44,244 nt of DNA, taken from positions 1 through 44,244 of the forward strand of contig JACQOK010000349.1 of assembly GCA_016202565.1 (NCBI GenBank). Direction: 5' to 3'. This stretch comes from Betaproteobacteria bacterium (GTDB taxonomy: Bacteria; Pseudomonadota; Gammaproteobacteria; Burkholderiales; SG8-41). The number at the start of each line of letters is the position of its first letter. The stretch's first letter is position 1. Below the pieces are notes generated by a model that was not told the DNA's origin, ran no database searches, and was given only the letters and a program-made list of their open reading frames with translations. Below, one piece after another: positions 8,506 through 39,244 of the stretch. Made by a program: the position numbers and the translations under genes.

Positions 8506-9356
8506 TCATGAGCCGAATAGCCCAATAGACGACGCATTTCCATGATTATGATTTGCTAAATTGAATTGGGCAGATTGCGCCACGTACGGGATGGCATAGC
8601 GCCGGCGTAACCCGGCATCGGGATGGACGGCACTGGCGCTCGATAGCACCGCCAGCACGAATCGCGCTCCCTTGGCCCGCGTCTCATCGTGCATCGCGAC
8701 CAGCAGCTTCTCGGTAAGGGTCCATGCCTCGCGCCAGGCCGGATCCGCGGGCTCGCGGAGCACGTTCTCGTCCAGCCCCGGTTCCAACAATGGCGGCGGC
8801 ACGTCGGCGCCCTCGGCGAGCGCAACGGCGATCGGGGCGTTGTGGTGAACGCGTAATTCGCCGGCCTTAAGCTTGCGTGCGAGCTAGTAGAGGCGCAGAC
8901 CCCGCAGCGCCTCCCGTTGCTCGTCCAGGCGCTTGGATTCCCGGAAGCGCGGGTCGGCGCGAACGAATCGTCGAGCGCGAGCTGCCCGTCCTTGATCACG
9001 AAAAACGGGCGCAGCCGGTCCGGCTCGAGCGCCCTGGAGTTGTTGCGCACGTCATTGCCGGGAAAGAAGGCGACGAGCACCAGGTCCGGCGCGTATTCCC
9101 AGACGCGGCGGCGCAGCGTCAGCAGCTGCTGCGCGGTGCCGTATCCCGAAACGCCCAAGTTGATCGCCTCGATGCGCTTGCCGCTTTCAAGCCCGCAGCG
9201 CGCCAGCCGTTCCGGAAGCAACGACCAGAACGTGTCCTTGAGGTCGACCTGGAGGGCCTCCGCAAAGGAATCTCCCAGCACAGCGATGCGATATTCGCGC
9301 TCCGGCTTGTTCACGGCGTGCTCGCGGTCGCGCCATCCGCGGCTGTTGATCTTCAC
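8506..9356 (-). pseudogene. SGNH/GDSL hydrolase pseudogene (frameshift, in-frame amber codon, and 3' truncation)
   Basis: The N-terminal frame (from 9356) carries block I VLGDSFAE, block II NLGVSGYGT and block III FFPGNDV. Sensible sequence leaves this frame near 8950-8975. It continues in the frame of ORF 8506..8802 (..RFRESKRLDEQREALRGLRLY*LARKLKAGEL..EPGLDENVLREPADPAWREAW..). That frame contains a TAG at 8884-8886 (complement). No block V (DxxH) was seen before the stop. Confidence 0.65.
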
Positions 9357-10362: not shown

Positions 10363-10616
10363 TCGGCTTCCTGCCCGTTGGCATGAGCATTATCGTGCCT
10401 TCGCCGGCGTTGCGCGGCTTGCGCCATCATCGATCAAGCCGGTTGACGGCCGTAGGGCCCGCTGCGCGCAGGGGATAGTCCGCTCGGATCAGCACAGGGA
10501 AGGGGTTGCCGAAACCGAAGCTTCATTCACGCAAGCCCTGAACTGCCGTGCGGCTTACCTGTCCGCCGCGTGCCGAAGCGGGCGCGTCTCGCAGCGTGTG
10601 CCGGCGGCCTGTCGTC

Positions 10617-11112
10617 TTACCGGATTGAAATCCCGGTGCTCGGGGTCAGCCGACCTGCGAAACGGTGCCGCCATGCAATGGTCGGGGCCGGCTGTTTGTG
10701 GTCGAAGCGGCGATGTCCATCCCGCGGCGGGAGAATCGCTGCCGCAGTAGAGTCTCGTGACTGCCCCGTGAATCCGCGGCAGCTGAAGTATCAGCGTGCA
10801 GGAGCCCCGGCCTAGCGCATAACCCAGGGGTATCGGCGACACTCTGCAGTCCTCGCTGCAATGAAAGAACAGCTCGAGGTCATGTTCGCCGCGCGCCTCC
10901 AGGATGTCCTCGATGCAGAAACGGCGCGCCCGCTTGTCAAGCGTAATCCGTCGCCGGTGCATGACAGGGTCCGCGAGCCGCATGTAGCCATCGTGCCAGC
11001 CCTCGAACACGTCCTTCCCGTCCGAAGTCGACCAGCGGCTGCAGCCGGCGCCTCTCTTCCTGCGCGGCGAATCGCACGTCGGTGGCCGCCCCGGCGGCGC
11101 TCCCAGCTTCAC
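10617..11112 (-). pseudogene. Heparinase II/III-family C-terminal fragment, N-terminally truncated and frameshifted
   Basis: The fragment reads ..GWHDGYMRLADPVMHRRRITL...IEDILEARGEHDLELFFH...AAGWTSP, the pattern of the family C-terminal beta-sandwich. After GWTSP the plausible continuation (FDHKQPAPTIAWRH..., stop TAA complement 10617-10619) lies in another frame. The shift is near 10700-10712. The ~400 N-terminal residues expected for the family are absent. Confidence 0.55.
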
Positions 11113-11165: not shown

Positions 11166-12065
11166 TCAGGCGGTTTGCAACCGGACGACCGGCGGGCAGG
11201 GGTTCAATCGCGGGCGAAGATAGGCGCCGGCCCAGTTCCCCACTTCTTTCAGCAACCGCCGCCGGTGCAGCTCCAGTGGATACGTGTGCTCGGCCTGCGG
11301 CCAGTAGATCTCGGTGCAGAACTGCGGATAGCCCTCGAGACCCAGGACCCCGCCCAACTGCCCCGCCCGGTTGTAGTAGGGAAGCGCGTATTGCGTGAAC
11401 ACGGACAGCACTCGTCCCTGCCGCTCCCGTATCGACAGGAACGCCGCCCGGACCTGCTCTCGCGTCGGAAGATTCCTGAGTGCCAGATAGTCCAGCGGCT
11501 CATCGTCTTCCTTCCTTTTTCTGCGCGGGGTCGTCAGAGCCTTGAGGCGACGCTTGAGCCACGAGACGTACAGATCCGGGTTCGTATACTTGAGGACCAG
11601 CGCCCGCGCCTTGAATCCATCGTCCCTGAAGCAGATGGGATCGAGCAGAACCATGCCGACGATCCGGGGATCCCCGGGCGTCAACTTGATCGCGTTGTCC
11701 GCGCCCGAGCAGAGCCCCGCCAGCACGAGTGGCAGTTGACCGAGGCGCGATTCGAGAACGCTCACGATCTCCTTGTAGTCCGCCGTCACGGATTCCTGAT
11801 TCGTCAGGCCGGGGCGGCGCGGACTGTCACCGATGCCCGCCAGATCGACGCGCAGCGAGCTGAAACCCATCCGGGCGAGCTGCCGGGAGAGTCGAACGTG
11901 CAGCCTGAACGTACCGACCCGGTGCAGCGCGCCGGCGCTCAGGAGCACGAACACCGGCAGCGCGTGCGCGGTGCGGGCCGGCGTCGCAGGGAGGGTCAGA
12001 ATCCCGAATAGCCGCCCGCCTTCCCCGAACTGCAGAGGTTCTTCCGTCAGGACAGGGTCAGACAT
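11166..12065 (-). CDS. Alpha/beta-fold protein, 'hydrolase 1' type, with Cys at the nucleophile elbow; last gene of the PKS/NRPS operon
   Basis: Track ORF 11166..12845 is trimmed to ATG 12065 (MSDPVLTEEPLQFGEGGRLFGILTLP). Motifs are LRVDLAGIGDS and LVLAGLCSGADNAI (G-L-C-S-G). It resembles the product of 40817..41770 (LRLDLEGFGDS, VGGLCGAAI). It overlaps the upstream gene by 19 nt. Confidence 0.8.
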   Translation of the reverse strand: MSDPVLTEEPLQFGEGGRLFGILTLPATPARTAHALPVFVLLSAGALHRVGTFRLHVRLSRQLARMGFSSLRVDLAGIGDSPRRPGLTNQESVTADYKEIVSVLESRLGQLPLVLAGLCSGADNAIKLTPGDPRIVGMVLLDPICFRDDGFKARALVLKYTNPDLYVSWLKRRLKALTTPRRKRKEDDEPLDYLALRNLPTREQVRAAFLSIRERQGRVLSVFTQYALPYYNRAGQLGGVLGLEGYPQFCTEIYWPQAEHTYPLELHRRRLLKEVGNWAGAYLRPRLNPCPPVVRLQTA

Positions 12066-12802
12066 GCGGTGAGCCGCTCCAATAACGGCTGGGGCAATAT
12101 GGGCCCCTCCAGGTCCGTCTCCCAGCCATACGCGACCCCGGCCACGCCTTGGAAGACGCCCGGCGCAGGTAGATCGGCCGCGGGCGAAGTGCTGACAACG
12201 TGCAGCTTGTGCTTCGGCACGCTCGAATAGGTGCTCGCATCGAGCGAACGGAATCCCTCCACCATGGATGCGGAGAGCCAGTAGCCGCCGTACTCGTGCA
12301 TCGCCTCGCGGCGCTCGCGGTGACTCAAGTACCGATTCCGCTCGAATATGGACGCCTGAACGCGTTTCAGCACGCGCAGGTACTCCGCTCCGTCCGGAAC
12401 CGGATCCCACAGGACCAACCGCTGGACGTCGTCGCGAGCGCCCGCGTACTTGCAGACAAGCAGGGCACCGGCCCGCACTCCGAGCAGCTGCACGCTGGTG
12501 CATCCGGAGAGCTCCCGGCCTTCCTGAACCGCGAGTGCGATGTCCTCCAGCCAGTCGGAGATCCCAACCTCGGCGAGCTCGCCGAACGAGTCTCCGGTGC
12601 CGCGATAATCGAAGCGGAGGACGTGCTGGCCTTTCCCGGAGAGGACAATGGCGAGTTCTCTCAGCACAAGATGCGTGCGCATATATTCCGAGCACAGCGG
12701 CGGGCAGATTATCGTGAGCAGCCTGCCGCTCCCTGCAGCCGGCGGGTGGTACGTCGCGAAGCGCTGTGCGCTGCCCGCTCCGAAGAAGAAGGCTTCGATC
12801 AT
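12047..12802 (-). CDS. Alpha/beta-fold protein, 'hydrolase 2' type, with Arg in place of the nucleophile; translationally coupled to the NRPS
   Basis: Track ORF 12047..13234 is trimmed to ATG 12802 (MIEAFFFGAG...). ATGA overlaps the NRPS stop (12799-12802). Motifs are VLRFDYRGTGDS, LLGVRAGALL and LVLWDPVPDGAEYL. At 251 aa it has the same length and motif order as the product of 40065..40820. Confidence 0.8.
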   Translation of the reverse strand: MIEAFFFGAGSAQRFATYHPPAAGSGRLLTIICPPLCSEYMRTHLVLRELAIVLSGKGQHVLRFDYRGTGDSFGELAEVGISDWLEDIALAVQEGRELSGCTSVQLLGVRAGALLVCKYAGARDDVQRLVLWDPVPDGAEYLRVLKRVQASIFERNRYLSHRERREAMHEYGGYWLSASMVEGFRSLDASTYSSVPKHKLHVVSTSPAADLPAPGVFQGVAGVAYGWETDLEGPILPQPLLERLTACLTLS

Positions 12803-15800
12803 GGGGCCGGCTCTCCGCTCCGGCATCGCGCCGCGATATCGGCAAGCGTTTCCTGGAACAGCACGACGAATTCGAGTCTTTTGCCGAGCTTCTCCTCGAT
12901 CAGTCGCAGCGCCCTCAGACCGAGCAGCGAGTAGCCGCCCATCTCGAAGAACTTGTCGCTGCGGACGATCGGCCGGGCCGGCTGAATCAGCTTCGTCCAG
13001 ATCTCGGCGATCGCCGCCTCGACCGGATCCGCTGGAGCGTCGTGCTGACCGACGCGGCTCTCGGTGACGACGGGCGTCGGAAGACGGCGCCGATCGATCT
13101 TGCCGTTTGGCGTCAGCGGAAACTCGTCCACCGCGAGAAAGTACTGCGGAATCATGTATTCGGGAAGGCGGGCACGCAGATGCTTGCGCAGGCCGATCGC
13201 GGGCAGGACGCCGCCCCTGGCCGGGACGCAGCACGCGACGATGCGCATGTCATTCGGCTTTACGGTCCACAAGTGCACGGCCGCCTGGTGCACGTCGGGA
13301 TGGCCGGCCAGTACCGTCTCGATCTCGCCCAGCTCGATGCGAAAACCCCGCACCTTGACTTGATCATCGAGGCGGCCGAGATGCTCCAGCGTGCCGTCAT
13401 TGCACCAGCGCGCGCGATCGCCGGTGCGGTAGAGCGTGGCGCCCGGTGCAGTGCTGAACGGATCCGGGATGAAGCGCTCGGCGGTGAGCTCGGGCCGGTT
13501 CCAGTAGCCGAGCGCGACTCCGTCACCTCCGATGTACAGCTCGCCGGGGACGCCGATGGGAGAGAGGTTCTTCCGCGCATCCAGGATCCGGACACTGGTG
13601 TTGGCTATGGGCCTGCCGATGGTGATCCCGCCGGAGGGATCGGTAATCCGCGCGCAGGTGGACCACACCGTCGTCTCGGTGGGACCGTACAGGTTCCACA
13701 GCTCGACGCCGCGCGCGATCAACTGATCGGCCAGGTCTTTGGGCAACGCTTCTCCGCCGACCAGGGCCTTGAACGGGACCCTGCCGGTCCAGCCTGTCTC
13801 GACGAGCATGCGCCAGGTGACGGGCGTGGCCTGCATAACGGTCGCCCGGTGCTGGTCGAGGAGCGCGCTCAGGGCACGGCCATCGGTGGCTTCATCGGGG
13901 GCCGCAATGACGACGGTCGCGCCGAGCGTGACCGGCAGCAGGAGCTCGAGCACGGCGATATCGAAGGACAGCGTGGTGACCGCGACCAGGACGTCGTTCT
14001 CCGTAAGGCCGGGCTCGCGCGCCATGCTCGTCAGGAAGTTGACGACGGCGCGGTGCGGGACCACGACCCCCTTGGGCCTCCCGGTGGAACCGGAGGTGTA
14101 GATGACATAGGCCGGATCCTCGGGACGCGCGGCAGGCGCATCGCCGGGCAGGGGGATGACGGCCGCGGAATCGATGGCCGCGGCGGCGGCATCCAGCAAC
14201 AGTTGACGCTCGCCAGGCATGTCGAGGGTGCCGGACAGGGCGGTGGTGGACACGAGCAGGGCAAGCCCGGCGTCCTCCGCCATGAAGCGCAGGCGCTCCG
14301 TCGGGAAAGAGGGATCGAGCGGAACGTAGGCGGCGCCGGCCTTGAGTATGCCGAGCATGGCGGCGACCATGTCGGCGCCCCGCTCGACGCACAGCCCGAC
14401 GCGCTGGCCGCGGCCGATGCCGCGCGCGCGCAACAGCCTCGAAACGCGGGCAGCGCGCGCGCCCAGCGCGGCATAGGAGAGCGCCGCCGCGCCCACCGTG
14501 AGGGCGGTGCGGGACGGCGCGCGCTTCACCTGCGCCTCGAACAGCTCGTGGACCAGCGCGCCGGCCGGATAGTCGGCCCCCGTCTGGTTCCACTCGTCAA
14601 GGACCAGGCTTCTTTCGACCACCGACAGTAGCGGCAGCTCCGATATCTTCTGCCACGGATTCCTGGCGAAGACGCGCAGCAATTGCTGGAAATTCGACGA
14701 CAGCCTTTCCACGGTCCGGGCCTCGAAGAGATCGGTGCAGTACTCGAAGCGTCCCACGTAGCCCTGATCCTCCTCGTAGAGATGAAGGCCCAGGTCGAAC
14801 TGGGCGAACTTCAGGTCGAAATGGAAGCTGCTGACTTGCAGGTCTCCGATTTTCGGCGCGCTCCCCGCCAGCACCTGCAATATGACCTGGAACACGGGGT
14901 TGCGGCTTGGATCCCTCTCGAGCTTCAGGTGCTTCGCCAGCGCCTCGAAAGACACGCCGCTGTTCGAGAAGGCGTTGAGCGTCGTGTCGCGGGTCCGCCG
15001 CAGCAATTCGATGAAGGCAGGATCGCCCGAGAGATCGCAGCGCAAGGCCGCCATGTTGAGGAAGTTCCCGATCAGCGGGTCGAGCTCGCCCTGTGTTCTC
15101 GCCGCGACCGGGGTGCCGATGACGATATCGTCCGCGCCGGAATAGCGCTGCAACAGCACCTGAAAGGCCGCCAAGAGCGTCATGAAGACGGTGCATCCTT
15201 CCCGCGCGCCGAGGGTCTTGAGATCCTCCGCCACCGGCGCGGGGATGCCGAAAAAGACATTCGAGCCGTTGAAGGACTGGAGGGCCGGCCGCGGTCTGTC
15301 ACCGGGCAGCTCCAGCACGGGAAGCGTGCCGGCGAGCTGCCGCTGCCAGAACTCGATCTGATCGGCGCAGGCCGCCTCACCGGCCATGCGTTGCCGCTGC
15401 CACACGGCGAAGTCGGCATACTGCACGGCCAGTTCGAGCGGGCGGGCATCGGCACCGCCGGTGTATGCGCGATAGAACGCATCCAGCTCGCGCATGAAGA
15501 CCCCGAAGGACAACCCATCCGCCACGATGTGATGAAAGTTGAGAATCAGGACGTGCTCGACGGCGCCCAGCCTGAACACCGACACCCGGATCAGCGGAAG
15601 GCGGGAGAGGTCGAACGATCTCAGGGATTCTTCCGAAGCCAGGGCCTGCAGCTTGTTCTCGCGCTCCTCGCCGCGCAGGTGGTCCAGCGGCGTGACCTTG
15701 ACCCGGATCTCCAGGTCGGGGTGGATGCGTTGCACGGGCTCGCCGTCGCGGACGACGAACGTGGTCCTCAGTCCTTCGTGCCGCTTGATGATTTCATTGA

Positions 15801-16082: not shown

Positions 16083-19000
16083 TTACTCTTGAGAAACGAG
16101 CCGTTGCGCCTGGTCATCGGTCATGCTTTCGATTTCCGCGAGGATTCTTGCCTGGATGACCGACGCCAGTTGCGCGATCGTGGGCGCCTCGAAGAACTCC
16201 CTGAGGCTGAACCTGATTTCATACAACGCTCTCACCTTCGACACGATCTGCATGGCCAGCAGCGAGTGCCCACCGAGCCGGGAAAACTGCTCGTGAACGC
16301 CGATCTGCTCGAGGCCCAAGACGATTCTCCAGATCTCCGCTACCGCTGCCTCGACTTCGTTGGTGGGGGCATCCGCCCCCTCCTGCACGGTGCCGCGGCG
16401 AGCGGGCATCGCGCGGCCCGTCCGCGCCAGCGACAGATACCGGTCGGGATCGACCGGCGCCCGGGATCGCGCCAGCACCTCCTGAAGATCCTCCGGACTG
16501 ACCAGGACCTGCTGCAGATCGGAGTTCAGTGCCCGTGCGAACGCCTCCACGCCGTCCCGGGTGGCGATCGCCTTGTCGAGGGCGGCCTTCTTCCAGCCCT
16601 CCAGCCCGGGCGCCGTTTCCAGCTCCGCCAGCTGTCCGATCTCCTTCCAGCCGGGCCAGTTGATGGTCAGCGTGTGAAACCTGTTCCGCGCATTGGCGGC
16701 ATAGGTGCAGGCATCGAGGAAGCAGTTGGCGGCGCTGTAGTCGCAGTGCGCGTACGGAGTATCGATTGCCGTCATCGACGAGAACAGAACCAGGAAATCC
16801 AGCGGCACGTCCTCGAGCAGGTCGAGCAGGATCATCGTGCCGTCGACCTTCGGGGCGAGCACGCTATCCGCAGTGGCCCTGGTCTTGCTCTGGATCAACT
16901 CCGCTTTGACGATGCCGGCGGCGTGGATGATGCCGTTGATCGCCCCGTAGCGCTCCAGTGCGTTCTCGAGAACGCTCTGCATCTGTGCCCGGTTGGAGAC
17001 CTCGGCCACCTGCACCTCGACTTGCCCTCCGGAGGCCTCGATTTCCATCAGCGCGTCGATCGTCCTCAGCACGGACTGCGGAGCCTCGCGCGTCAGCGAC
17101 AACTGCTTCCACACCGATTTATCGGGGAACGCCGACTTCTTGGTGAGAACGATCCGGGGCTGGCAGGTCTGCGCCAGATATTTCGAGATCGACAACCCGA
17201 TCCCTCCGGTACCCCCGGTAATGACGTAGACCCCGTTGCGTCTCAAACGACCGAGGCCGGACGGGTGCTCCGACGCCTCCGACGAGAGGGCCTTCGGCAG
17301 GGCGACGCGTTCGAAGTCCCGCCGCCAGCGATAGCGCCCGCGGTAGGCGACCACCTCGCCGCGGCACGGGTCGGCGAACTCGGAAACGATCCTGGCGATC
17401 ACTTCGCCGGGCAAGCTGTCGATGGGCTGTTCATCGGGCAGATCGATGTTGAAGCACTTGACGTTGGGGAACTCCTTGGGGATGACTCCGCAGGGTCCGA
17501 GCACCGTTGCCATTTCAGGAGCGAGGCGTTCTTCGCCGGTGACTTCATGCACCCGGTTGGAAATAATGCCGATGCTGACTGGAACGGAAACGTTCAGCTC
17601 ACCGAGTGCCTGCGCGATGTGCAGGAGGCTGTAGAAGCCGAATTCCTGGCGGGCCGCGCAGGAGTAATCGGCGTGCTCCCGGTCATCGCGGATGAGGCTC
17701 CCCAGATGGATGATGTTGATGGCCTTTGGCGCGGCGCCCACCGCGAGCACCTCGAACAGCTTCAGGTAGTTGTCGATGCCCGCCGGATTCAGCTCGAACG
17801 AACCATCCCCGCACTGCGCGAAGCGGTCTCCAAACCGGACGAAAGCAGCCGCGAGTCGAAGGCCGTCAAGGTGCGCTTTGACCTGACCCCCTCCGCCGTA
17901 ACGGTCGGCAAAAATCAGCCAGAAGGCGTCATCCCGGGGGCGGCGCGGTGCGCCGAAAGGCGGCTCGCGCTTCCATGCCGGAACATAGAACCACTCGTCG
18001 AAGCCCCGCATCCCCGATGTCTGGTCGTGCTCTTGCCTCTCGTCTGCCCCGGGGGGCGTGGTCTCCATCCAGTGGGTCTGTCTCGCGAAAGGATAGGTCG
18101 GCAACGGCACTCTGCGGCGGCGCCCGCCGGACGGAGCATTGTCCCAGTGGATTCCGACGCCCGCGAGCCACAGCCTGCCGATGGCGTGCCACAGGAACTC
18201 GACATCGGACTGGTTCTCGTAGTCGTGCCTGATCGAGGATACCGCCAGCGGATCGCCGCCATTGCACCGGTCGGGATGCTGCATGGCGAGTACCGCCAGC
18301 GTCCGGCCCGGCCCCGCTTCCAGGAGAATGGGATTCGTGAAGCGCCAGAGCTCGTGCAGAGCGTCGCTGAACCGGGCCGTCCGCGTGGCGTGCAGGGCCC
18401 AGTAAGCGGGATCGGCGGCTTCGCTTCGCGTAATCCAGGTGCCGGTGACGTTGGAGATGTACGGAATGGCAGGCGCGTTGAGGCGGACCTTGCCCACCTC
18501 CTTTTCGAACGGCTCCACGATCGGATCGAGCATGCGCGAGTGAAAGGCGTGAGCGTTCTGAACGTGCCGGCAGAGGATGCTCTTCGCATTCAGCGTCTTC
18601 TCGAAATCGGCTACGGCGGCGGCCGGTCCGGCCACCACGCACAGGCTCGGGCCGTTGATCAGGGAGATGGACAGATCCCCGGGCAGCAGCGGAAGCAACT
18701 CGGCTTCCGGCAACGTGACGGCGAGCATGGCTCCCTGGGGCAGTGCGTTGACCAGCCGTGCCCGCGTTGCGACGAGCCGCAACGCATCCTCCAGCGATAG
18801 AACGCCGGCCACGCACGCCGCCACGTACTCGCCCATGCTGTGACCGACGATGGCATCAGGGGTGATGCCGAGCGATTGCCAGAGACGCGCCATGGCATAC
18901 TCGACCGTGAATAGCGCCGGCTGGGCTACGAGCGTCCGATTCAGGTTCGCGGCCTCCCGGCCCTCCGGTGCATCGGCGCCCCGCCCGAGCATTTTTTTCA

Positions 19001-20771
19001 GGTCAATGCCCTGGCTCTTGCGATCCTTCTTCCAACTCCCGTCGGCGGGATAGATGACGTTCCGGATGTCGATCCCGAGGTGCGGCTCGAGAATGTCGGA
19101 GCAGCGATCGACCTCCTGTCTGAATACGTGCCACGTCTCGTAGAGATCGCAGGCCATGCCCACGTAGTGATCGCCGATGCCGGGCAACAGCAGGATTACG
19201 GGGCGCCGCGATTCGTCCGCCCGGCCGGTAAGGACCCGTTTCGAGCGTGCGTCGCCGAGGGCGGTGATGGCGTCCTTCCTGTCCTCACAGAGGAGATACC
19301 GCCGGTGTGAGAACGCCTTGCGCCCGGTCTGCAGGGTGTAGGCGATGTCACCCATGTTCACGGCATCGTTCCGGTCAAGGAACTCGCGCAAGTTGTGCGT
19401 GGCCTCGTCCAAGGCTCGTTCAGTCTTCGCCGAAAGAACCAGCAAGTGTGGCGAGCGGGCTGCGGCCGATGCCGCCGCCTGCGGCGGCGCCTCCTCGAGG
19501 ACTATGTGCGCGTTGGTCCCGCCCATGCCGGTGGACATCACGCCCGCTCGCCTGGGACCGTCGCCCACCCATTCCCGCAACCGCGCGTTGACATAGAACG
19601 GGGTGGCCGGAAAGTCGATTTCGGGATTGGCTTCGCTGAAATGGAGATTGGCCGGAAGGGTTCGGTGCTCGAGGGCGAGAACGGTCTTGATCATGCCGGC
19701 GATCGCGGCTGCGGCGTCGAGGTGGCCGATATTGGTCTTCACCGAACCAATGGCGCAGTAGCTGCAACGCTGCGTGAATGTGCGAAACGCCTTGGTCAAG
19801 GCCCTGACCTCGATCGGATCCCCGACGGGGGTTCCCGAACCGTGCGCTTCTACGTAGGTGATGCTGTCAGCTTCGACCCCGGCATTGGCCAGCGCCTCCA
19901 CGACAGCGTCGGCCTGGCTCGCGACGCTCGGCGCGGTGTAACCGGCTTTTTCGGAACCGTCGTTGTTGACGGCCGAGCCCTTGATCACGGCATGTATGGT
20001 GTCGCCGTCGGAGAGCGCGTCCGCGAGCCGCTTGAGCACAACGATGCCGCCGCCGCTGCCGAAAACGGTGCCGTTCGCCCGGGCGTCGAAAGCCCGGACG
20101 TGCCCGTCCGGAGAGACCACCCCGCCGCCGTCGTAGAAGTACCCGGCGCGGTGCGGAACGCGCACCGATACCGCCCCGGCGAGCGCCATATCGGACTCCC
20201 CGCTCAACAGGCTCTGGCGGGCCAGGTGGACCGCGACCAGGGAGGTCGAGCACGCGGTCTGAATCGTGATGCTGGGCCCCCTGAGATTGAACTTGTAGGA
20301 GATCCGGGTGCTCAGAAAATCCTTGTCGTTTCCGATGAGCGTGGGGATGTAATCCTCGGCGAGCCGGCTTACCAGCCCGACGTTCATGAAATAGGTGTTG
20401 AGAGCCGCTCCGGTAAAGACCCCAATGCGCCCCTGATAGCGCTCCGGGTCGCAGCCCGCATGTTCGAGCGCTTCATGGGCCAGCTCCAGCAGGATGCGGT
20501 GCTGCGGATCCATGGTCCTCGCCTCCATCGGCGAGTAGCCGAAAAACGCTGCATCGAACTGACCCGGCTCCTCCAGGACCGGCGCCACCTTCACGTAAGC
20601 CGGGTTGGAAAGCCAGACCGCGGGCACGCCGGATGCCACGAGCTCCTGGTCCGAGAACCTCGTGATCGACTCGACGCCTGCTGCGAGGTTGTGCCAGAAC
20701 TCGTCGAGGTTGCGCGCCCCCGGAAACCGGCCGGACATGCCAACGATCGCGATGTCGAACTCGTTGTCCAT
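16083..20771 (-). CDS. Type I PKS module KS-AT-KR-carrier
   Basis: Track ORF is trimmed to ATG 20771 (MDNEFDIAIVGMSGRFPGA), 8 nt after the upstream stop. KS motifs are TACSTS, EAHGSGT and NIGH (about 20762-19488). AT motifs are GHSMGE and HAFH, malonyl-type (about 19199-18282). KR motifs are VITGGTGGIG and YSAAN (about 17234-16647). The carrier has LGGHSL (about 16364-16137). No DH or ER motifs were seen. Confidence 0.95.
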   Translation of the reverse strand: MDNEFDIAIVGMSGRFPGARNLDEFWHNLAAGVESITRFSDQELVASGVPAVWLSNPAYVKVAPVLEEPGQFDAAFFGYSPMEARTMDPQHRILLELAHEALEHAGCDPERYQGRIGVFTGAALNTYFMNVGLVSRLAEDYIPTLIGNDKDFLSTRISYKFNLRGPSITIQTACSTSLVAVHLARQSLLSGESDMALAGAVSVRVPHRAGYFYDGGGVVSPDGHVRAFDARANGTVFGSGGGIVVLKRLADALSDGDTIHAVIKGSAVNNDGSEKAGYTAPSVASQADAVVEALANAGVEADSITYVEAHGSGTPVGDPIEVRALTKAFRTFTQRCSYCAIGSVKTNIGHLDAAAAIAGMIKTVLALEHRTLPANLHFSEANPEIDFPATPFYVNARLREWVGDGPRRAGVMSTGMGGTNAHIVLEEAPPQAAASAAARSPHLLVLSAKTERALDEATHNLREFLDRNDAVNMGDIAYTLQTGRKAFSHRRYLLCEDRKDAITALGDARSKRVLTGRADESRRPVILLLPGIGDHYVGMACDLYETWHVFRQEVDRCSDILEPHLGIDIRNVIYPADGSWKKDRKSQGIDLKKMLGRGADAPEGREAANLNRTLVAQPALFTVEYAMARLWQSLGITPDAIVGHSMGEYVAACVAGVLSLEDALRLVATRARLVNALPQGAMLAVTLPEAELLPLLPGDLSISLINGPSLCVVAGPAAAVADFEKTLNAKSILCRHVQNAHAFHSRMLDPIVEPFEKEVGKVRLNAPAIPYISNVTGTWITRSEAADPAYWALHATRTARFSDALHELWRFTNPILLEAGPGRTLAVLAMQHPDRCNGGDPLAVSSIRHDYENQSDVEFLWHAIGRLWLAGVGIHWDNAPSGGRRRRVPLPTYPFARQTHWMETTPPGADERQEHDQTSGMRGFDEWFYVPAWKREPPFGAPRRPRDDAFWLIFADRYGGGGQVKAHLDGLRLAAAFVRFGDRFAQCGDGSFELNPAGIDNYLKLFEVLAVGAAPKAINIIHLGSLIRDDREHADYSCAARQEFGFYSLLHIAQALGELNVSVPVSIGIISNRVHEVTGEERLAPEMATVLGPCGVIPKEFPNVKCFNIDLPDEQPIDSLPGEVIARIVSEFADPCRGEVVAYRGRYRWRRDFERVALPKALSSEASEHPSGLGRLRRNGVYVITGGTGGIGLSISKYLAQTCQPRIVLTKKSAFPDKSVWKQLSLTREAPQSVLRTIDALMEIEASGGQVEVQVAEVSNRAQMQSVLENALERYGAINGIIHAAGIVKAELIQSKTRATADSVLAPKVDGTMILLDLLEDVPLDFLVLFSSMTAIDTPYAHCDYSAANCFLDACTYAANARNRFHTLTINWPGWKEIGQLAELETAPGLEGWKKAALDKAIATRDGVEAFARALNSDLQQVLVSPEDLQEVLARSRAPVDPDRYLSLARTGRAMPARRGTVQEGADAPTNEVEAAVAEIWRIVLGLEQIGVHEQFSRLGGHSLLAMQIVSKVRALYEIRFSLREFFEAPTIAQLASVIQARILAEIESMTDDQAQRLVSQE

Positions 20772-20779
20772 CGCAGGTG

Positions 20780-22408
20780 CTAACGACTCGCCTCGATGAC
20801 CGGTTCGGGCAATGCCTTGCGATCGGCTTTCCCGCTCGGCGTCAGCGGGATTTCCCCGATTCTTTCGAAGCGGTTGGGGATCATGTAGTCGGGAAGGCGC
20901 CTTCGCAGGCAGCGCTTCAGATCCTCGATGTCCAAGTCCGGTTTGCACACCAGGTAGGCGATGATGAGGATGACGCTCTCCGAGTATTTCCTGACCATCG
21001 CCACGCAGTCGACGATGCCGGCGTGTTCCCGGATCGTGTTCTCGATCTCGCCCAGCTCGATCCGCAATCCGCGGATCTTGACCTGATGATCCTGGCGGCC
21101 CAGGTACTCGATGTTCCCGTCGGGCAGCCAGCGGGCGACGTCTCCCGTTCGATAGATTCTTTCGCCGGGGTTGACGGGATTGTCGGTGAACTTCTCGGCC
21201 GTCAGCGCCGGGTTGTTGAGATAGCCCCTGGCGAGGCCGACTCCGGCAATGCACAGCTCTCCGGTCTCGCCGATGCCGACCTGCCGGCCGTCCTTGATGA
21301 CGTAGAGCCGGATGTTCTGGATGGGGCGCCCGATCGGAATGCTCTCGAAATCATTGTGCGCCGGGCAGTCGAAATGGGTGACGTCGACGGTCGCCTCGGT
21401 GGGGCCGTAGAGGTTGATCAGGCGGGTCCCGGTCCGGCTGCGCAGGATGGCGTTGAACTTCTTCACGTGGCTCGGCATCAGCGTTTCGCCGCTGGCGAAT
21501 ACCTGCCGGACCGAAGCGAGCTTCTCCGGCGCCTCGCCGCGCTTGGCCTCCAGATACTCCAGGAAGACGTTGAGCATCGAAGGAACGAAGTGCATGACGG
21601 TGGTGCGATGTCTCCTGATGGTCTCGACGATGGCCGGGGGATTTCTTTCCCCGCCCGGCATCAGGAAGCAGAGCCTGGCGCCCTGCAGAGCCCACCAGAA
21701 GAGTTCCCACACCGAAACGTCGAAATAGTAGGGCGTCTTCTGCAGGATGATGTCGTTTTCATCGATGGGGTACGCCTGCTGCATCCAGTGCAGGCGGTTG
21801 ACCACGGCGCGGTGCTCGATCATCACGCCCTTCGGTTTGCCGGTCGACCCGGACGTGTAGATCACGTACGCCAGGTCGTCCGGCTTGTTCAGAATGGCGG
21901 GGTTCGCCGCCGGGCCACGGTAGATGTCCGGATCGTCGAGATCGATGGCGAGCCCTGCAAACGCATAGCGCCCGGCGGTCGCGCCGTGGACCAGCAGCAT
22001 CCTGACTCCCCCGTCCTTCAGCATGTAGTCGATGCGCTCCGGCGGATGGTCGGGCGGCACCGGGAGATAGGCGCCTCCCGCCTTCACGATGCCCAGAACG
22101 CCGATGATCATGGCGAAGGACCGCTCGACCATCAGTGCAACGACCTCGCCCGGCCCGACACCTTTCGCCCTCAGCAGATGCGCCAGCTGATTGGCCTTTT
22201 CGTTCAACTGCGCGTAAGTGAGCGACGTCACCCCGAACACTTTGTCGTGGTCGCAGAGAACCGCCGTCTGAGACGCGTGCGTAGCGACCTGCGCCTCGAT
22301 CAATTCCTGCAGCGTGACGTTATCCGGGAACGCGGCCTCGGTTCGGTTGAACCCGGCGATCCGCGCGAGATCGCTTTCATTCGCGACCGGTGTGGCGTGG
22401 GTATCCAT
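20780..22408 (-). CDS. Stand-alone adenylation enzyme with no carrier domain (code Ser-like)
   Basis: Track ORF 20780..23281 is trimmed to ATG 22408 (MDTHATPVANESDL...), 14 nt after the acyl-CoA DH stop. Motifs are LTYAQLNEKAN, YVIYTSGSTGKPKGV, FDVSVWE, NLYGPTEATVDV, GELCIAGVGLARGY, YRTGDVA and PSGKADR. The code read by eye is DVWHFSLVDK. The protein ends 15 aa after the A10 Lys. Confidence 0.9.
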   Translation of the reverse strand: MDTHATPVANESDLARIAGFNRTEAAFPDNVTLQELIEAQVATHASQTAVLCDHDKVFGVTSLTYAQLNEKANQLAHLLRAKGVGPGEVVALMVERSFAMIIGVLGIVKAGGAYLPVPPDHPPERIDYMLKDGGVRMLLVHGATAGRYAFAGLAIDLDDPDIYRGPAANPAILNKPDDLAYVIYTSGSTGKPKGVMIEHRAVVNRLHWMQQAYPIDENDIILQKTPYYFDVSVWELFWWALQGARLCFLMPGGERNPPAIVETIRRHRTTVMHFVPSMLNVFLEYLEAKRGEAPEKLASVRQVFASGETLMPSHVKKFNAILRSRTGTRLINLYGPTEATVDVTHFDCPAHNDFESIPIGRPIQNIRLYVIKDGRQVGIGETGELCIAGVGLARGYLNNPALTAEKFTDNPVNPGERIYRTGDVARWLPDGNIEYLGRQDHQVKIRGLRIELGEIENTIREHAGIVDCVAMVRKYSESVILIIAYLVCKPDLDIEDLKRCLRRRLPDYMIPNRFERIGEIPLTPSGKADRKALPEPVIEASR

Positions 22409-22422
22409 GGGGTCGGTGTCGG

Positions 22423-23577
22423 TTACTTTCCGGGCCCGCCGGCTCGAGCGACGAACATCTTCCCCAGAATGTCCTCGTGGACCTGGGTCGTGCCCTCGAT
22501 GATCTCCATGATCTTGGCGTCCCGGTAATAGCGGGAAACCGGGGAGGAGCCGTGACAGCCTGCGGCACCTCTGATCTGAACGGCATCGGAGGCCGCCCGC
22601 ACGGCGGCTTTTGACGTGAAGTACTTGGCCGTCAAGGTCCTTTCGAACGCTTCGGGGAGGTGATCGTCCTCGGCGCGGCAGGCGTTGTGGCACAAGAGAC
22701 TTCCCGCTTCCAGGTCGGTACCCATCCTGGCGATCAACGATCGGATCATGCCGAGGTCGCCCACGGTGCCGCCGCCGATCCTCCGCGCGGCCGCGTAGGC
22801 GATGCTTTCTTCGAAGCACCCGCGCAGGAGTCCCAATGCAGACCAGGCGGTGCTGATCCGCCCATACTGCAGGCCCACGGGAGCGACGTGCGACAAGGCA
22901 AAGCCCGGCTTGCCGATGAGGTTCTCCGACGGAACTTCCACATCCTCGAAGTGCAACTGGGCCAGACCGGCCGCGCGGAACCCCATCAGGTCGCAGATGG
23001 GCTCGACGCCAAGACCGGGAGCGTTCCGGGGCACCAGGCAGGCCGCCGGACGCCGCTCGAGCCTGCCAAACACGAGAAACAGGTCCGCGAACTGGGCGCA
23101 GCTGATCCACTTCTTGTGACCGTTGAGAAGAAGGCTTTCGCCGCCGGAAGTCCGGGTGAATTCCGTGGTCAGAGACTGCAGGTCGCTCCCTGCTCCCGGC
23201 TCCGTCAGCCCGAACGCCCCGATCATCTTTCCGGTGGCGAGCGGAGGCAGCCAGCTGCGCTTCTGCTCGGCCGTGCCCCACTTGAGCAGGGCCATGGAAA
23301 CCATGGACTGGACCGTAAGCACGCCGGTCAGTGCCGAAGATCCTCTCCCGAGGGCTTCATTCAGCAGACCGAACGTGACGGCGTCGGATCCCTGGCCGCC
23401 ATAATCCGCCGGCAGGCTGCAGCCGAGGTAACCGCGCTGCGCCAGGCTGGAGATCACGGACCGGGGAATTTCCTGCTCGCGATCCCACTGCTCCGCAAAG
23501 GGCTCGACGTTGAGCTTCACGAAGGACTTGAATTCCTCGTGCCTGCTCGCTTGCGAGTCGGTCAGCAGCCGCCGCAT
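22423..23577 (-). CDS. Acyl-CoA/acyl-ACP dehydrogenase family flavoprotein (FkbI/ZmaI-like context)
   Basis: Motifs are FGLTEPGAGSDL, the ACAD middle and C-terminal pattern, YRDAKIMEIIEGTTQV (catalytic Glu region) and a C-terminal 4-helix region. Confidence 0.9.
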   Translation of the reverse strand: MRRLLTDSQASRHEEFKSFVKLNVEPFAEQWDREQEIPRSVISSLAQRGYLGCSLPADYGGQGSDAVTFGLLNEALGRGSSALTGVLTVQSMVSMALLKWGTAEQKRSWLPPLATGKMIGAFGLTEPGAGSDLQSLTTEFTRTSGGESLLLNGHKKWISCAQFADLFLVFGRLERRPAACLVPRNAPGLGVEPICDLMGFRAAGLAQLHFEDVEVPSENLIGKPGFALSHVAPVGLQYGRISTAWSALGLLRGCFEESIAYAAARRIGGGTVGDLGMIRSLIARMGTDLEAGSLLCHNACRAEDDHLPEAFERTLTAKYFTSKAAVRAASDAVQIRGAAGCHGSSPVSRYYRDAKIMEIIEGTTQVHEDILGKMFVARAGGPGK

Positions 23578-23598
23578 GAGAGCCGTCCGATCCTCGAC

Positions 23599-23862
23599 TC
23601 AAGCGGCCGAGTGGCCGTTTTTTCTCAGGACGAAGGCCGCCGTCGCGTTGAGCGACTTGAAATTCTCCATGTCGAGGTCGTCCATTCCCACTTCGATGCC
23701 GAAAGCTTTCTCGATGAACGTCATCAACTGGACGGCGAACAGGGAATTGACGATGCCCGATCCGAAGAGATCGTCGTCGTCATCCAGCTTCGCGATGGCG
23801 ATCGAGCCCAGTATGAAAGCCCTGACCGTATCCTTGATACCGCTTGCCTGTTCGGGACTCAT
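23599..23862 (-). CDS. Free-standing acyl carrier protein (87 aa)
   Basis: This is the C-terminal 87 codons of track ORF 23599..24888, starting MSPEQASGIKDTV. The candidate Ppant serine lies in LFGSGIVNSLFAVQLMTFIEK. Its ATG (23862-23860) overlaps the TGA of the upstream dehydrogenase (ATGA). Confidence 0.8.
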   Translation of the reverse strand: MSPEQASGIKDTVRAFILGSIAIAKLDDDDDLFGSGIVNSLFAVQLMTFIEKAFGIEVGMDDLDMENFKSLNATAAFVLRKNGHSAA

Positions 23863-24800
23863 GCGCTTCTCCGCTTCGTTGCATCGGCCCGCGCCGCTTC
23901 GGGCGCGGGATTTATCGCCCTTGCCGCAGCCTCCCCGCCTCTTTCCTCGGGATACACATGGAATCCTCTTCCGGTTTTCCGTCCCAGATGGCCGGCATGC
24001 ACGAACTTTCTCAACAGGGGACAGCAGCGGTACTTCGGGTCGTGGAAGCTCTCGTAGAGAACGTCGAGAGAGCGCATCACCGTGTCGAGCCCGATCAGGT
24101 CCGCCGTCTCCAGCGGCCCCATCTTGTGCCCGAAGCATTTCTTGAAGATGAGGTCGATCTTCTCCGCCGTCGCCACGCCGTCCTGCAGGGCGAACGCGGC
24201 CTCGTTCATGAACAGGTGCGAGATCCGGTTCGATACGAAGCCCGGCAGGTCCTCGACGATGATGGCCTCCTTGTTGAGGCGAGAAAGCAGCTGCAGCAAG
24301 CTGTCGACAGCGCGGTCCGAGGTATGGAATCCGCGGATCACTTCGACCGTCGGCTTCAAATGGACCGGGTTCATGAAGTGCACTCCGACCACGTTGGCCG
24401 CGCGCTTGGTGGCGCTCGCTATCTGCGTGATGGAAATACACGAGGTATTGGCGCCGAAACAGACTTCGGGAGGCACAGCTTTCTCCAGCTTCTGGTAGAC
24501 GCCCTTCTTGATGTCCCAATCCTCGGTTACGTTCTCGATGATCAAATCGCAGGAGGAAACGTCCTTCAGTTCCGTCGTCAAAACCAGGCGCCTCGCGGCA
24601 TCTTCCCTGGTCACAGCAGGCAGGGTTTTCGAGAGCAAGGGACCAAAGCGGACGTTCTTCAGAACCTCCTCTTCCGCCTTTCTCAATATTTCCTCCGACA
24701 GGTCGACCACCACCGCGTCGATCCCATGCAGAACCAGATCCGTGATCACCCCGGTCCCGATGTTGCCCGCTCCCACGACCCCGACGCGCGCTGGTCTCAT
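23859..24800 (-). CDS. 3-hydroxyacyl-CoA dehydrogenase family protein (FkbK/ZmaG-like context)
   Basis: The Rossmann motif is VGVVGAGNIGTG. Other motifs are HFMNPVHLKPTVEVIRG and GFVSNR, with a C-terminal helical domain. The preferred start is ATG 24800 (MRPARVGVVGAG), preceded by GAAGGAAGGGAG. The track start at 24836 is the alternative. Confidence 0.9.
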   Translation of the reverse strand: MRPARVGVVGAGNIGTGVITDLVLHGIDAVVVDLSEEILRKAEEEVLKNVRFGPLLSKTLPAVTREDAARRLVLTTELKDVSSCDLIIENVTEDWDIKKGVYQKLEKAVPPEVCFGANTSCISITQIASATKRAANVVGVHFMNPVHLKPTVEVIRGFHTSDRAVDSLLQLLSRLNKEAIIVEDLPGFVSNRISHLFMNEAAFALQDGVATAEKIDLIFKKCFGHKMGPLETADLIGLDTVMRSLDVLYESFHDPKYRCCPLLRKFVHAGHLGRKTGRGFHVYPEERGGEAAARAINPAPEAARADATKRRSA

Positions 24801-24817
24801 TTCGCCGCTCCCTTCCT

Positions 24818-25678
24818 TCAACCTCTTCTGAACCACAACATGCCCATCTTCGCGGTCTCCGCGACCTGCTTCTCCAGCCTGAATCCATGCCGCCGCAAGT
24901 CTTCCTCTATTTCCCGTTCCTTGCCGTCATGGTATTCGATGATGATCCGGCCTATTATCGAGAAGGTGGGCGCGCTGATGCCCGCCAGGATGTCGTACTC
25001 CGATCCCTCGCAGTCCATTTTCAGCAGATCGATACGAGAGATGCTTTCCCTGCTGACAATATCGTTCAAAGAGATGGTAACTACCGATTCACGCTCGTCG
25101 TTGTCCGCATTTCCGTAGGCGATGCGATTCTGTGGACTGGCGGCTTTCGGGATCGTGACGACTTCGTTCGATCTGGAGGTGACGGCGTGGTGGTAGGGAA
25201 CGATTGTGTCCTGAAGATTGTTCCTTCTTATGTTTTCCAGGATGCAGCCACAGGCTTCGCGGTTCGGTTCGAACGCATACACTTTTTTCGCGCCGCTGAA
25301 GGCCGCATAGAGCGAAAACAGTCCGATATTCGCTCCGATGTCGACCACCACCGTATCGGGGTCTACCGGGTAGACCCTGTCGCAAAACACCTGGAACAAA
25401 ACGACCAGGTCGAGCTGATGGCCGGAAAGAATCAATTCCCCGCCTTTCTTGAGACGAATGCGTTTCTCCGGCGGCGACGTGTGATTCAAATAGTGGCGTA
25501 TGAGCGGACCCGGCCTTTTGAATACGGGCCATGCTCTAGCGACAAGCGGCGCATTTCTGAGGACTTTTGGCAGAAGCGCCCGCGCTCTGGCAGGCAACAA
25601 TGCCTTGGCGATCCTGCGAGCAAACTCGATTGCATCGAAGTTTCCTGCGCTGACGCCGATTTTGCTGGGGGTTTCCAT
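24818..25678 (-). CDS. FkbM-family methyltransferase
   Basis: Motifs are VVDIGANIGLFSLYAA, VYAFEP and IDLLKMDCEGSEYDIL. The start is taken as METPSK (25678), 1 nt after the loader stop. ATG 25690 is an alternative. Confidence 0.85.
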   Translation of the reverse strand: METPSKIGVSAGNFDAIEFARRIAKALLPARARALLPKVLRNAPLVARAWPVFKRPGPLIRHYLNHTSPPEKRIRLKKGGELILSGHQLDLVVLFQVFCDRVYPVDPDTVVVDIGANIGLFSLYAAFSGAKKVYAFEPNREACGCILENIRRNNLQDTIVPYHHAVTSRSNEVVTIPKAASPQNRIAYGNADNDERESVVTISLNDIVSRESISRIDLLKMDCEGSEYDILAGISAPTFSIIGRIIIEYHDGKEREIEEDLRRHGFRLEKQVAETAKMGMLWFRRG

Positions 25679-25679
25679 G

Positions 25680-29618: not shown

Positions 29619-30360
29619 TCATCGCGTCCGTCAGACGACGGCAGGGCAGCGAGCGCACGGTAATTCGCTCGGGGTCAGCCATTGGGCCGTGAACACGCTG
29701 TACGACGAGGGCGCCGGTCAGGCCAGGGCCGGGCACGAAGCCATGAAGCGCCCAGCCGCACCGGTCTCCCGGCGTGCTGTCAACGCGCAGGATGCAGGCG
29801 GGCATACCCGGAGCAAGGGAAACGTCGAAGCGACCAAGCCCATGGCTCAGGCCAGCGCCGAGCGCCTTGACGAAGGCCTCCTTGCGCGTCCAGCAGTTGA
29901 AGAACCCGAGCGGCCTGTCGCGCGGAGCGAGCGCGAGATACGCGGCGTTCTCCCGGGGGGAGAACGCGTGTGCTGCGATTTCGTCGGCGCCGGGGATCAC
30001 GCGCACAGCTTCGATGTCCACTCCGATCTCGCGTGCCGGCGAAAAGGCGTAAACGGCGACATCATCGCAGTGAGAGACGTTGAACTGCAGTCCGGAATGT
30101 GCCAAAGCTCCTCCGAGCGCAGGCTTGCCGCGCCGTCCGTACGTCAGCTCCACCGAGCCCGGCCGAACTCCCAGCCGCATCCCGAGCAACTGGCGCAGTC
30201 GCGCGCGCGCGACAGTAAATCGGCAGCGATCGCGATCCAATGCAAAGCGCCTCGCGCGCTCTCGCTCTTCCGCCGAAAGCAGGGCGGCCGACGCGCCGAC
30301 GGTATCGGGGCCTACGTCGATTCGGGTCACCACGACCTCGATTGCGCTGTCATCCGCCAT
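29599..30360 (-). CDS. Sfp-type 4'-phosphopantetheinyl transferase
   Basis: Motifs are RGKPAL, FNVSHC, IGVDIE and WTRKEAFVKALG. Its 3' end overlaps the loader start by 20 nt. Confidence 0.9.
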   Translation of the reverse strand: MADDSAIEVVVTRIDVGPDTVGASAALLSAEERERARRFALDRDRCRFTVARARLRQLLGMRLGVRPGSVELTYGRRGKPALGGALAHSGLQFNVSHCDDVAVYAFSPAREIGVDIEAVRVIPGADEIAAHAFSPRENAAYLALAPRDRPLGFFNCWTRKEAFVKALGAGLSHGLGRFDVSLAPGMPACILRVDSTPGDRCGWALHGFVPGPGLTGALVVQRVHGPMADPERITVRSLPCRRLTDAMNEHDDA

Positions 30361-36865: not shown

Positions 36866-37075
36866 ATATCTGCGCCGGACGGACTATCAGTGATGCGAAG
36901 TACATTCGTTCATTCCAGCTCACAATGCGGTGACGTTCCTTTCCTCACATGAGGAGGTTGGAACCCAGGCATCATTCGACCTCGCCAACTGGCGTGAACC
37001 GCACGCCCCGGATCCGGCAGGCGTCACCGTCGGCTCGCCGTGTCGCCGCGAGCATTCCTCCCGCCGGATAATATC

Positions 37076-37081
37076 AAGGAG
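37076..37081 (+). promoter_or_regulatory. Shine-Dalgarno AAGGAG for the ComA-like gene
   Basis: AAGGAG lies 6 nt upstream of ATG 37088, and the 222-nt non-coding gap 36866-37087 precedes it. Confidence 0.6.
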
Positions 37082-37087
37082 ACTCGC

Positions 37088-39199: not shown

Positions 39200-39244
39200 A
39201 TGACGGCGTTCACCCGCAATGTCACGATCCGGGGAGATAACATC

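Follow-up and report, generated by a model that had tools for sequence, protein, structure and literature searches.

Two pairs of adjacent genes in a 44,244-nt contig from a Betaproteobacteria bacterium (GenBank assembly GCA_016202565.1, contig JACQOK010000349.1; the whole contig is called the window below) encode proteins of the alpha/beta-hydrolase fold in which the serine of the nucleophile elbow is replaced, by cysteine in one partner and by arginine in the other. The Cys-type partner is designated H1 and the Arg-type partner H2; pair 1 comprises H2a and H1a, pair 2 H2b and H1b (Table 1). This paired Cys/Arg module is kept in hundreds of bacterial species, and the conservation of the two elbow residues is far beyond chance. 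The module is probably a new way to release or transfer products bound to carrier proteins; we think it fairly likely that each pair is a two-subunit unit, sometimes fused into a single protein, that acts on carrier-held acyl, aminoacyl or peptidyl thioesters.

The family was sampled in two ways. H2a was searched against about 15 billion proteins clustered at 50% identity, each cluster being represented once, and gave 8262 matches at E ≤ 1e-3; a scan of one genome per GTDB species yielded at least 586 confirmed H2 relatives, and 80 loci were kept. These 80 loci span Beta-, Gamma- and Alphaproteobacteria, Myxococcota, Acidobacteriota, Gemmatimonadota, Chloroflexota, Planctomycetota, Nitrospinota, Bacteroidota and others, and include cultured carriers: Marinobacter lipolyticus, Corallococcus spp., Hyphomonas oceanitis and Aliikangiella coralliicola.

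Cysteine and arginine at the nucleophile elbow

A first-pass annotation of the window, made from the sequence alone, had assigned Cys and Arg to the elbow by eye. Re-reading the sequence recovers all four elbow motifs, and in all four proteins the block (L)R(V/F/L)D..G.GDS that the annotation had remarked on. Four independent routes now agree that Cys119 of H1a, Cys122 of H1b, Arg110 of H2a and Arg116 of H2b occupy the nucleophile elbow; profiles against solved hydrolases, AlphaFold2 models and hhalign concur with the by-eye placement.

Alignment to structurally characterised hydrolases puts Cys or Arg on the serine each time. A profile of 121 H1 sequences sets lvlaGLCsga against IGVIGLSMGG of the MHETase 9pjb, with the Cys on the Ser of GLSMG, and sets aeHtytle (AEH(260)T) against the catalytic-His stretch of the same enzyme. 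A profile of 120 H2 sequences sets llGvRaGa against MLGFSLGG of 9pic, with the Arg on the Ser of GFSLG; the Arg also falls on Ser113 in LLGLS(113)MGG of the Tth MAG lipase 7q4h, which is the triad serine of that enzyme (PMC10682391). The AlphaFold2 model of H1a (predicted local distance difference test, pLDDT, 79.4) reads strand 113-118, Cys119, helix 120-131; that of H2a (pLDDT 88.5) reads strand 103-109, Arg110, helix 111-121. Both models match solved alpha/beta hydrolases in Foldseek with E values of 1e-11 to 1e-12, and Pfam Hydrolase_4 and Abhydrolase matches likewise place the proteins in this fold superfamily. When the H1 and H2 families are compared with hhalign, Cys119 and Arg110 share one column (probability 96%, E 3e-9); the two are therefore paralogues that diverged at the elbow residue.

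Another way to read the alignments supposes that the elbow has been mis-assigned and that the real nucleophile is a Ser elsewhere, for example in the G-x-G-D-S block. That serine is well kept, as Ser72 in 86 of 86 H2 domains and as Ser81 in 77 of 83 H1 domains. However, the G-[DE]-S block is equally present in relatives with an ordinary Ser elbow (GDSEG in 9pic, GDSDG in 9pjb, GESDG in the Tth lipase), and these use the elbow Ser, as shown for Ser113; with four independent alignments and models pointing to one elbow, the proposal is scarcely credible. The block Ser was rejected as nucleophile on the ground that canonical Ser-elbow relatives have the block too.

Conserved residues of the two subunits

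The elbow residues of the first-pass annotation prove to be conserved across the family. The Cys of H1 is found in 120 of 121 close orthologues, in all 83 domains from the genome loci and in 55/55 H1 domains of fusion proteins (described below). The other recognizable catalytic residue is a histidine: His260 of H1a, which in the AlphaFold2 model comes after the last strand (250-254) and before the last helix, is present in 121/121 close homologues and in 72/72 genome-locus domains where aligned. H1 thus resembles an enzyme with a Cys-His dyad, which an Asp or Asn may assist.

A loop after strand 3 of H1 carries a signature of its own, N-x-G-x-x-H-R-x-G-x-x-R (residues 43-54 of H1a, about 11904-11939), with Gly45 in 83/83, His48 in 74/83, Gly51 in 82/83 and Arg54 in 82/83 domains. 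The only internal segments of the H1a model with pLDDT below 50 are this loop and residues 183-191; the loop may perhaps become ordered only in a complex or upon substrate binding.

The Arg of H2 is kept as firmly: in 120/120 close orthologues, in 86/86 domains from the genome loci, and in 148 of the best 150 of the 8262 matches to H2a. Cys appears at the elbow among those best 150 only in second, H1-like domains. The two representatives with a Gly elbow (P0294 and P0359; GLGIG and GLGLG) may be natural variants or errors. The rest of the triad is missing from H2 as well. The position aligned to residue 203 of the Tth lipase, which we take to be its catalytic Asp, varies; neither the close orthologues nor the 86 loci domains show a conserved His in the loop that follows the last strand, where Cys/Tyr225 and Trp227 are found. 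With no counterpart to Ser, acid or His in alignments or loci, H2 is therefore not a canonical hydrolase. The first-pass annotation had described the Arg partner as having lost its nucleophile; the absence of a triad bears this out, but simple loss understates the case, because the Arg is almost invariant and hence under selection.

Other residues are conserved specifically in H2: Cys33 (83/86), Pro35, Glu39 (82/86), Trp132 (86/86), Asp/Glu133 (79/86), Gly173 and Trp227, in addition to Arg110 itself; in H2a they include the motifs Cys33-x-Pro35 and Trp132-Asp133-Pro134. In the H2a model, residues 33, 110 and 133 lie at the C-terminal ends of strands 3, 5 and 6. These strands are neighbours in the alpha/beta-hydrolase sheet, and the three residues should therefore cluster at the former active site. 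The model also shows a lid of helix-hairpin-helix type.

This concentration of conserved residues raises the possibility that both subunits are enzymes, H2 having a non-canonical site built from Arg110, Asp/Glu133, Glu39 and perhaps Cys33. Such a site could act before or after H1: acceptor activation, elimination, decarboxylation, or attack by a second thiol nucleophile are examples. An inert scaffold would not usually experience such selection on its former active site, at the ends of neighbouring strands. Against this, several H2 domains have Ala, Val or Leu in place of Cys33; Cys at that position also occurs in the Ser-type 9pic (LMCHG) and may be a buried structural residue; H2 offers no conserved general base and no His of its own. 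We know of no precedent for Arg as a catalytic elbow residue, and consider an active H2 rather unlikely. Cys33 as an alternative nucleophile was itself rejected, on its replacement in some members and its presence in Ser-type relatives.

Three further positions of H2a deserve mention. Tyr225 of H2a (12128-12130) is Cys in 118/120 close orthologues, and Cys37 (12692-12694) is Phe in 118/120; Cys247, near the C-terminus, is invariant within the window subfamily and not in the wider family.

Paired genes beside carrier proteins

For 77 of 84 H2 domains from the 80 loci, H1 comes next on the same strand, with gaps of -9 to +147 nt between the domains; a contig end truncates the neighbourhood of two further H2 domains of the 84. 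In the window the start of H1a overlaps the stop of H2a by 19 nt, and the start of H1b overlaps the stop of H2b by 4 nt (ATGA). The two genes can also become one: a search with one fusion protein found about 85 clusters of H2-H1 fusions, 520-640 aa long, in Armatimonadota, Kiritimatiellae, Burkholderia and others, every one with an N-terminal Arg domain and a C-terminal Cys domain. Cultured organisms with fusions include Mycetohabitans rhizoxinica (WP_013428943), Azospirillum lipoferum (WP_014250124), Burkholderia gladioli (WP_013700104) and B. cenocepacia (Bcam1334). That H1 and H2 behave as one unit is supported by gene order, overlaps and fusions alike.

One might instead suppose that the two proteins serve the same pathway separately, without forming a complex: H1 as a free-standing Cys thioesterase for editing or release, H2 in a binding or regulatory role. 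Operon adjacency alone is no proof of a complex, and in loci L013, L068 and L020 the H2 and H1 genes lie 1-6 kb apart. The fixed order, the overlapping genes and the many fusions in several phyla argue the other way; moreover the Tth MAG lipase, among the closest solved relatives, is an obligate-looking homodimer. Independent action is accordingly quite unlikely.

The usual upstream neighbour in the 80 loci is a nonribosomal peptide synthetase (NRPS) that ends in a bare thiolation (T) domain. Of the 67 proteins of at least 300 aa upstream of H2, 57 have a G-G-x-S-L motif located 40-98 residues before the C-terminus and lack a thioesterase (TE). Pfam analysis of five upstream NRPSs gave condensation-adenylation-thiolation (C-A-T) or C-A-T-C-A-T in four, C-A without a PP-binding match in the fifth, and a TE in none of the five. 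In several proteins (P0244, of 3053 aa; P0250, P0253, L015, L034, L063 and L071) T and H2 are fused at the NRPS C-terminus, the usual place of a TE. Pair 1 has the placement of the functional TE class: it follows the last carrier domain of a line without another release domain. With carrier proteins among the neighbours as well, the link to a terminal T domain or acyl carrier protein (ACP) drawn by the first-pass annotation is strong.

Many NRPSs preceding H2 have a short basic tail after the T domain, (K/R)x(L/F)F(G/N)xx; a loose version of the pattern is found in 26 of 67. Examples are ...TLFRRLFGAR in Marinobacter lipolyticus (L021:3498-9950) and ...LAQRLFNKLRRNLPGRSD in Corallococcus (L024:83-6433), with about 24 more loci. 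Such a tail is a possible docking peptide for H2/H1; it is missing from the window NRPS.

Fused members tell a related story. A conserved operon contains an ACP, a protein of the acyl-CoA-dehydrogenase family, an amino acid--[ACP] ligase resembling aminoacyl-tRNA synthetases, DUF1839, a glycosidase of glycoside hydrolase family 2 (GH2) and the H2-H1 fusion; it is found at L084:1418-10818 (M. rhizoxinica pBRH01) and L085:3188-10776 (A. lipoferum 4B). This operon links the module to aminoacyl-carrier proteins. The genes following H1 in the loci are heterogeneous, among them phosphopantetheinyl transferase (PPTase; 6), Acyl_transf_3 (5), polysaccharide deacetylase (3) and ABC transporter (3), and no single conserved downstream gene emerged that could name the acceptor. 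In one related locus an EpsH gene lies downstream. What recurs is a loaded carrier protein, in many cases located in a cell-surface polysaccharide locus.

That second element suggests a further reading, in which the pair or fusion acts on polysaccharide rather than on carrier thioesters, as an exopolysaccharide esterase or quality-control hydrolase of the kind guessed for Bcam1334. Fused members do lie in wzx/wza/wzc/wzy clusters or beside GH2 glycosidases; the window has glycosyltransferase, UDP-glucose dehydrogenase and heparinase-like genes; the nearest catalogued families come from the XrtA/PEP-CTERM exopolysaccharide system; Acyl_transf_3 and polysaccharide deacetylases are among the genes downstream of H1. 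Yet an NRPS T domain directly precedes most sampled members or is joined to them in one protein, and the GH2-linked operons also carry an ACP and an amino acid--[ACP] ligase, so that action on polysaccharide alone is distinctly improbable. The two readings can be reconciled if the module moves a carrier-bound acyl group onto a sugar.

The window presents the module in two settings (Table 1). Pair 1 closes a hybrid assembly line of NRPS and polyketide synthase (PKS) genes, which runs PPTase, PKS with dehydratase, methyltransferase and ACP domains (DH-MT-ACP), FkbM methyltransferase, ACP, acyl-CoA dehydrogenase, acyl-AMP ligase, PKS with ketosynthase, acyltransferase, ketoreductase and ACP domains (KS-AT-KR-ACP), NRPS C-A-T, H2a, H1a. 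The NRPS stop codon and the H2a start share ATGA. The C-A-T protein, in which Pfam finds neither a TE nor a reductase domain, is the presumed donor for pair 1. Its C-terminus (12799-13050, minus strand) has the carrier core GGYSL instead of GGHSL, a variant shared with locus L080. Within the line, the DH-MT-ACP protein holds an embedded FkbM-type methyltransferase domain (Methyltransf_21), and a separate FkbM gene adjoins it (24818-25765); FkbM-type domains within PKS modules are uncommon.

Table 1. The two H2/H1 pairs and associated genes of the window
Feature	Size	Position	Strand	Details
H1a (Cys type)	299 aa	11166-12065	-	elbow LAGLCSGADN; Cys119 at 11709-11711; His260 at 11286-11288, loop after strand 8
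H2a (Arg type)	251 aa	12047-12802	-	elbow LLGVRAGALL; Arg110 codon 12473-12475
NRPS C-A-T	1082 aa	12799-16047	-	Pfam Condensation, AMP-binding, AMP-binding_C; carrier motif by sequence, Ser1040 at 12928-12930
Assembly-line genes upstream of C-A-T		16083-30360	-	feed the C-A-T module
PKS KS-AT-KR-ACP		16083-21254	-	upstream of C-A-T NRPS
PKS DH-MT-ACP		25680-29618	-	
PPTase		29599-30360	-	
AMP-forming acyl ligase		34067-35737	+	best match TIGR03098 (exosortase-A-associated ligase), below its cut-off
H2b (Arg type)	251 aa	40065-40820	+	elbow LLGHRLGGAI (GHRLG); Arg116 at 40410-40412; Cys38; LWDA
H1b (Cys type)	317 aa	40817-41770	+	elbow VGGLCGAAIT (GLCGA); Cys122 at 41180-41182; His274 at 41636-41638
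Small ACP	89 aa	41818-42087	-	IIDST motif; Pfam PP-binding 22.3 bits vs cut-off 20.8; weak NCBIfam ACP matches

Pair 2 is preceded by the TIGR03098-like AMP ligase, a PGA_cap/CapA protein and then ComA, an ATP-grasp protein and ComB; the small ACP is directly downstream on the opposite strand, beside glycosyltransferase and UDP-sugar genes. This ACP is the candidate donor carrier for pair 2, and the ligase the candidate loader of the ACP. The three genes directly 5' of the pair (37040-39985) encode ComA (phosphosulfolactate synthase), the ATP-grasp protein and ComB (2-phosphosulfolactate phosphatase); they suggest that the group handled by pair 2 may be a sulfolactate-derived acid. An anionic sulfonate would suit the Arg pocket of H2.

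Downstream of H1a, a short open reading frame (10555-11112) matches only the C-terminal part of heparinase II/III, and a GDSL-like one (8556-9356) is matched weakly and in part; the two are possible gene remnants. The same heparinase fragment lies 3' of H1 in three short metagenome contigs (L001-L003).

Known relatives, proposed action and significance

The nearest catalogued families are two without an assigned function. NCBIfam best matches of H1a and H1b are to TIGR03100 (hydrolase 1, exosortase A system-associated), at 63.6 and 68.9 bits against a cut-off of 168.45; those of H2a and H2b are to TIGR03101 (hydrolase 2 of the same system), at 107.8 and 98.5 bits against 202.75. Several neighbouring genes behave similarly: for the ligase, amidotransferase and glycosyltransferase, XrtA-system families are best or among the matches, all below cut-off. 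No exosortase was matched among the window proteins scanned. Like the window pairs, TIGR03100 and TIGR03101 are encoded by adjacent genes, and they share with pair 2 the association with an AMP ligase and an ACP; pair 1 differs in being coupled to a PKS/NRPS line. A search for members above the two cut-offs, whose elbow residues could be read, found none among 24 proteins scanned, and in proteins named 'exosortase A-associated hydrolase 2' by JGI the H2 domain carries Arg and the H1 domain Cys. By their sequences, the window proteins are part of a broader unnamed superfamily around TIGR03100/TIGR03101.

Among solved structures, the best fold and sequence matches of H1 and H2 include the Tth MAG lipase (7q4h/7q4j) and Hydrolase_4 esterases (feruloyl esterases, PET46, the MHETase MHT043-5), at 13-20% sequence identity. 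These share the RFD..G.G(D/E)S block with the window proteins, and the lid of H2a is a further likeness. They are Ser-Asp-His hydrolases, whereas the window proteins have Cys (H1) or Arg (H2) in place of the Ser, and H2 lacks conserved counterparts of both their acid and their His.

Cysteine at the elbow is known from other alpha/beta enzymes: the polyhydroxyalkanoate (PHA) synthase PhaC, dienelactone hydrolase, and the Cys-type TE domains of the obafluorin and sulfazecin NRPS pathways. These share with H1 the G-x-C-x-G elbow, the His and a chemistry of thioester acyl-enzymes, and the obafluorin and sulfazecin domains act on T-domain thioesters, as proposed for H1. To our knowledge none of them has an obligatory paralogous partner with an Arg elbow. 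The elbow Cys does not decide between transfer and hydrolysis, because dienelactone hydrolase hydrolyses with Cys.

Several candidate identities were tried and rejected. The window proteins match only generic hydrolase families in Pfam, with no PhaC-type domain; PhaC was not found among the PDB sequence matches or the 50 Foldseek matches listed, and of its triad H1 has the Cys and His, the Asp being unconserved. PF00975 thioesterase gave no match at E ≤ 0.01 for any of the four window proteins; in Foldseek, H2a finds the curacin TE and DcsB as distant fold matches, and these occur only in the company of general alpha/beta hydrolases. Dienelactone hydrolase PF01738 likewise matched none of the four, and is listed in the precomputed Pfam assignments of many fusion homologues. 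What the first-pass annotation observed is confirmed and its interpretation partly supported; its comparison with PHA synthases survives as an analogy only.

In the full-text literature searched, no functional or active-site study of the TIGR03100/TIGR03101 hydrolases was found, Bcam1334 being mentioned only as a predicted hydrolase; nor was any study describing an Arg at the nucleophile elbow or a heterodimeric thioesterase of the H2/H1 kind. The fold and the neighbouring catalogued families are known; the two-subunit Cys/Arg arrangement and its coupling to carrier domains without a TE appear to be undescribed.

From the elbow positions and their conservation, the order of the genes, the fusions and the carrier neighbourhood, we infer a complex, a thioester intermediate and a role for the Arg, as follows. 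H1 would be the catalyst: its elbow Cys, activated by a His in the canonical position (a geometry read from secondary structure in the model), would attack the thioester carried by the terminal T domain of an NRPS in pair 1 and by a free-standing ACP in pair 2. An acyl-S-enzyme would form on H1. Water, an intramolecular nucleophile or an external acceptor may resolve it, an acceptor other than water being more likely. H2, a paralogue that has kept the fold but is stripped of the Ser-acid-His triad, would pair with H1 as homodimeric relatives of the fold pair with themselves; the pairing would resemble that of the Tth MAG lipase, whose two identical subunits form a joint substrate site (PMC10682391). 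The Arg pocket of H2, presumably flanked by Asp/Glu133 and Glu39, would serve binding rather than covalent catalysis, and could hold an anionic group of the substrate, of the acceptor or of the phosphopantetheine arm. The fixed order T-H2-H1, with fusions of T to H2 and of H2 to H1, suggests that H2 bridges carrier and catalyst.

Some observations weigh against this account. H1 lacks a strictly conserved acid: at Asp142, which follows strand 6, the loci domains have Asp in 65, Asn in 13 and Glu in 3 cases and the fusions mostly Ser or Asn, and the loci alignment shows no conserved acid after strand 7, where Asn232 is common (54/72). Two of the 150 H2 representatives have Gly at the elbow. Some family members (B. 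gladioli; B. cenocepacia Bcam1334) occur in wzx/wzy-type exopolysaccharide clusters without an identified carrier protein next to them. Finally, the carrier domain of the window NRPS is divergent, with its GGYSL core, and does not reach E 1e-5 with Pfam PP-binding.

A bolder version of the carrier-thioester reading, possible but doubtful in our estimate, makes H2/H1 an unrecognised class of release or transfer enzymes. In it the Cys-His subunit works only together with its triad-less paralogue, whose elbow Arg forms the acceptor or carrier site, and acyl, aminoacyl or lipopeptidyl groups pass from T domains or ACPs to an acceptor other than water, such as exopolysaccharide or another cell-surface molecule. 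The Dlt system offers a functional analogy only: an AMP-forming ligase (DltA), a small carrier (DltC) and a hydrolase-fold transfer enzyme are combined in a locus for a cell-surface polymer. Module and Dlt system are unrelated in sequence; of the two Dlt proteins that carry out transfer to teichoic acid, DltD is SGNH-like and DltB belongs to MBOAT. If the bolder version is true, Gram-negative exopolysaccharide loci would possess in the module a Dlt-like decoration system, and the 'hydrolase 1/2' genes of XrtA/PEP-CTERM systems, long without an assignment, would be explained.

No release mechanism is known for many NRPS lines with a bare T domain at their end; the module would fill this gap and aid the prediction of their products. 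A near-invariant elbow Arg paired with a Cys-type paralogue provides a case of partnership between pseudoenzyme and enzyme. Culturable hosts allow it to be tested directly: Marinobacter lipolyticus, Corallococcus, Burkholderia, Mycetohabitans and Azospirillum. The module would also give a first mechanistic handle on the exosortase-A 'hydrolase 1/2' genes and on Bcam1334, in the biofilm polysaccharide cluster of B. cenocepacia, all of them annotated as predicted hydrolases only.

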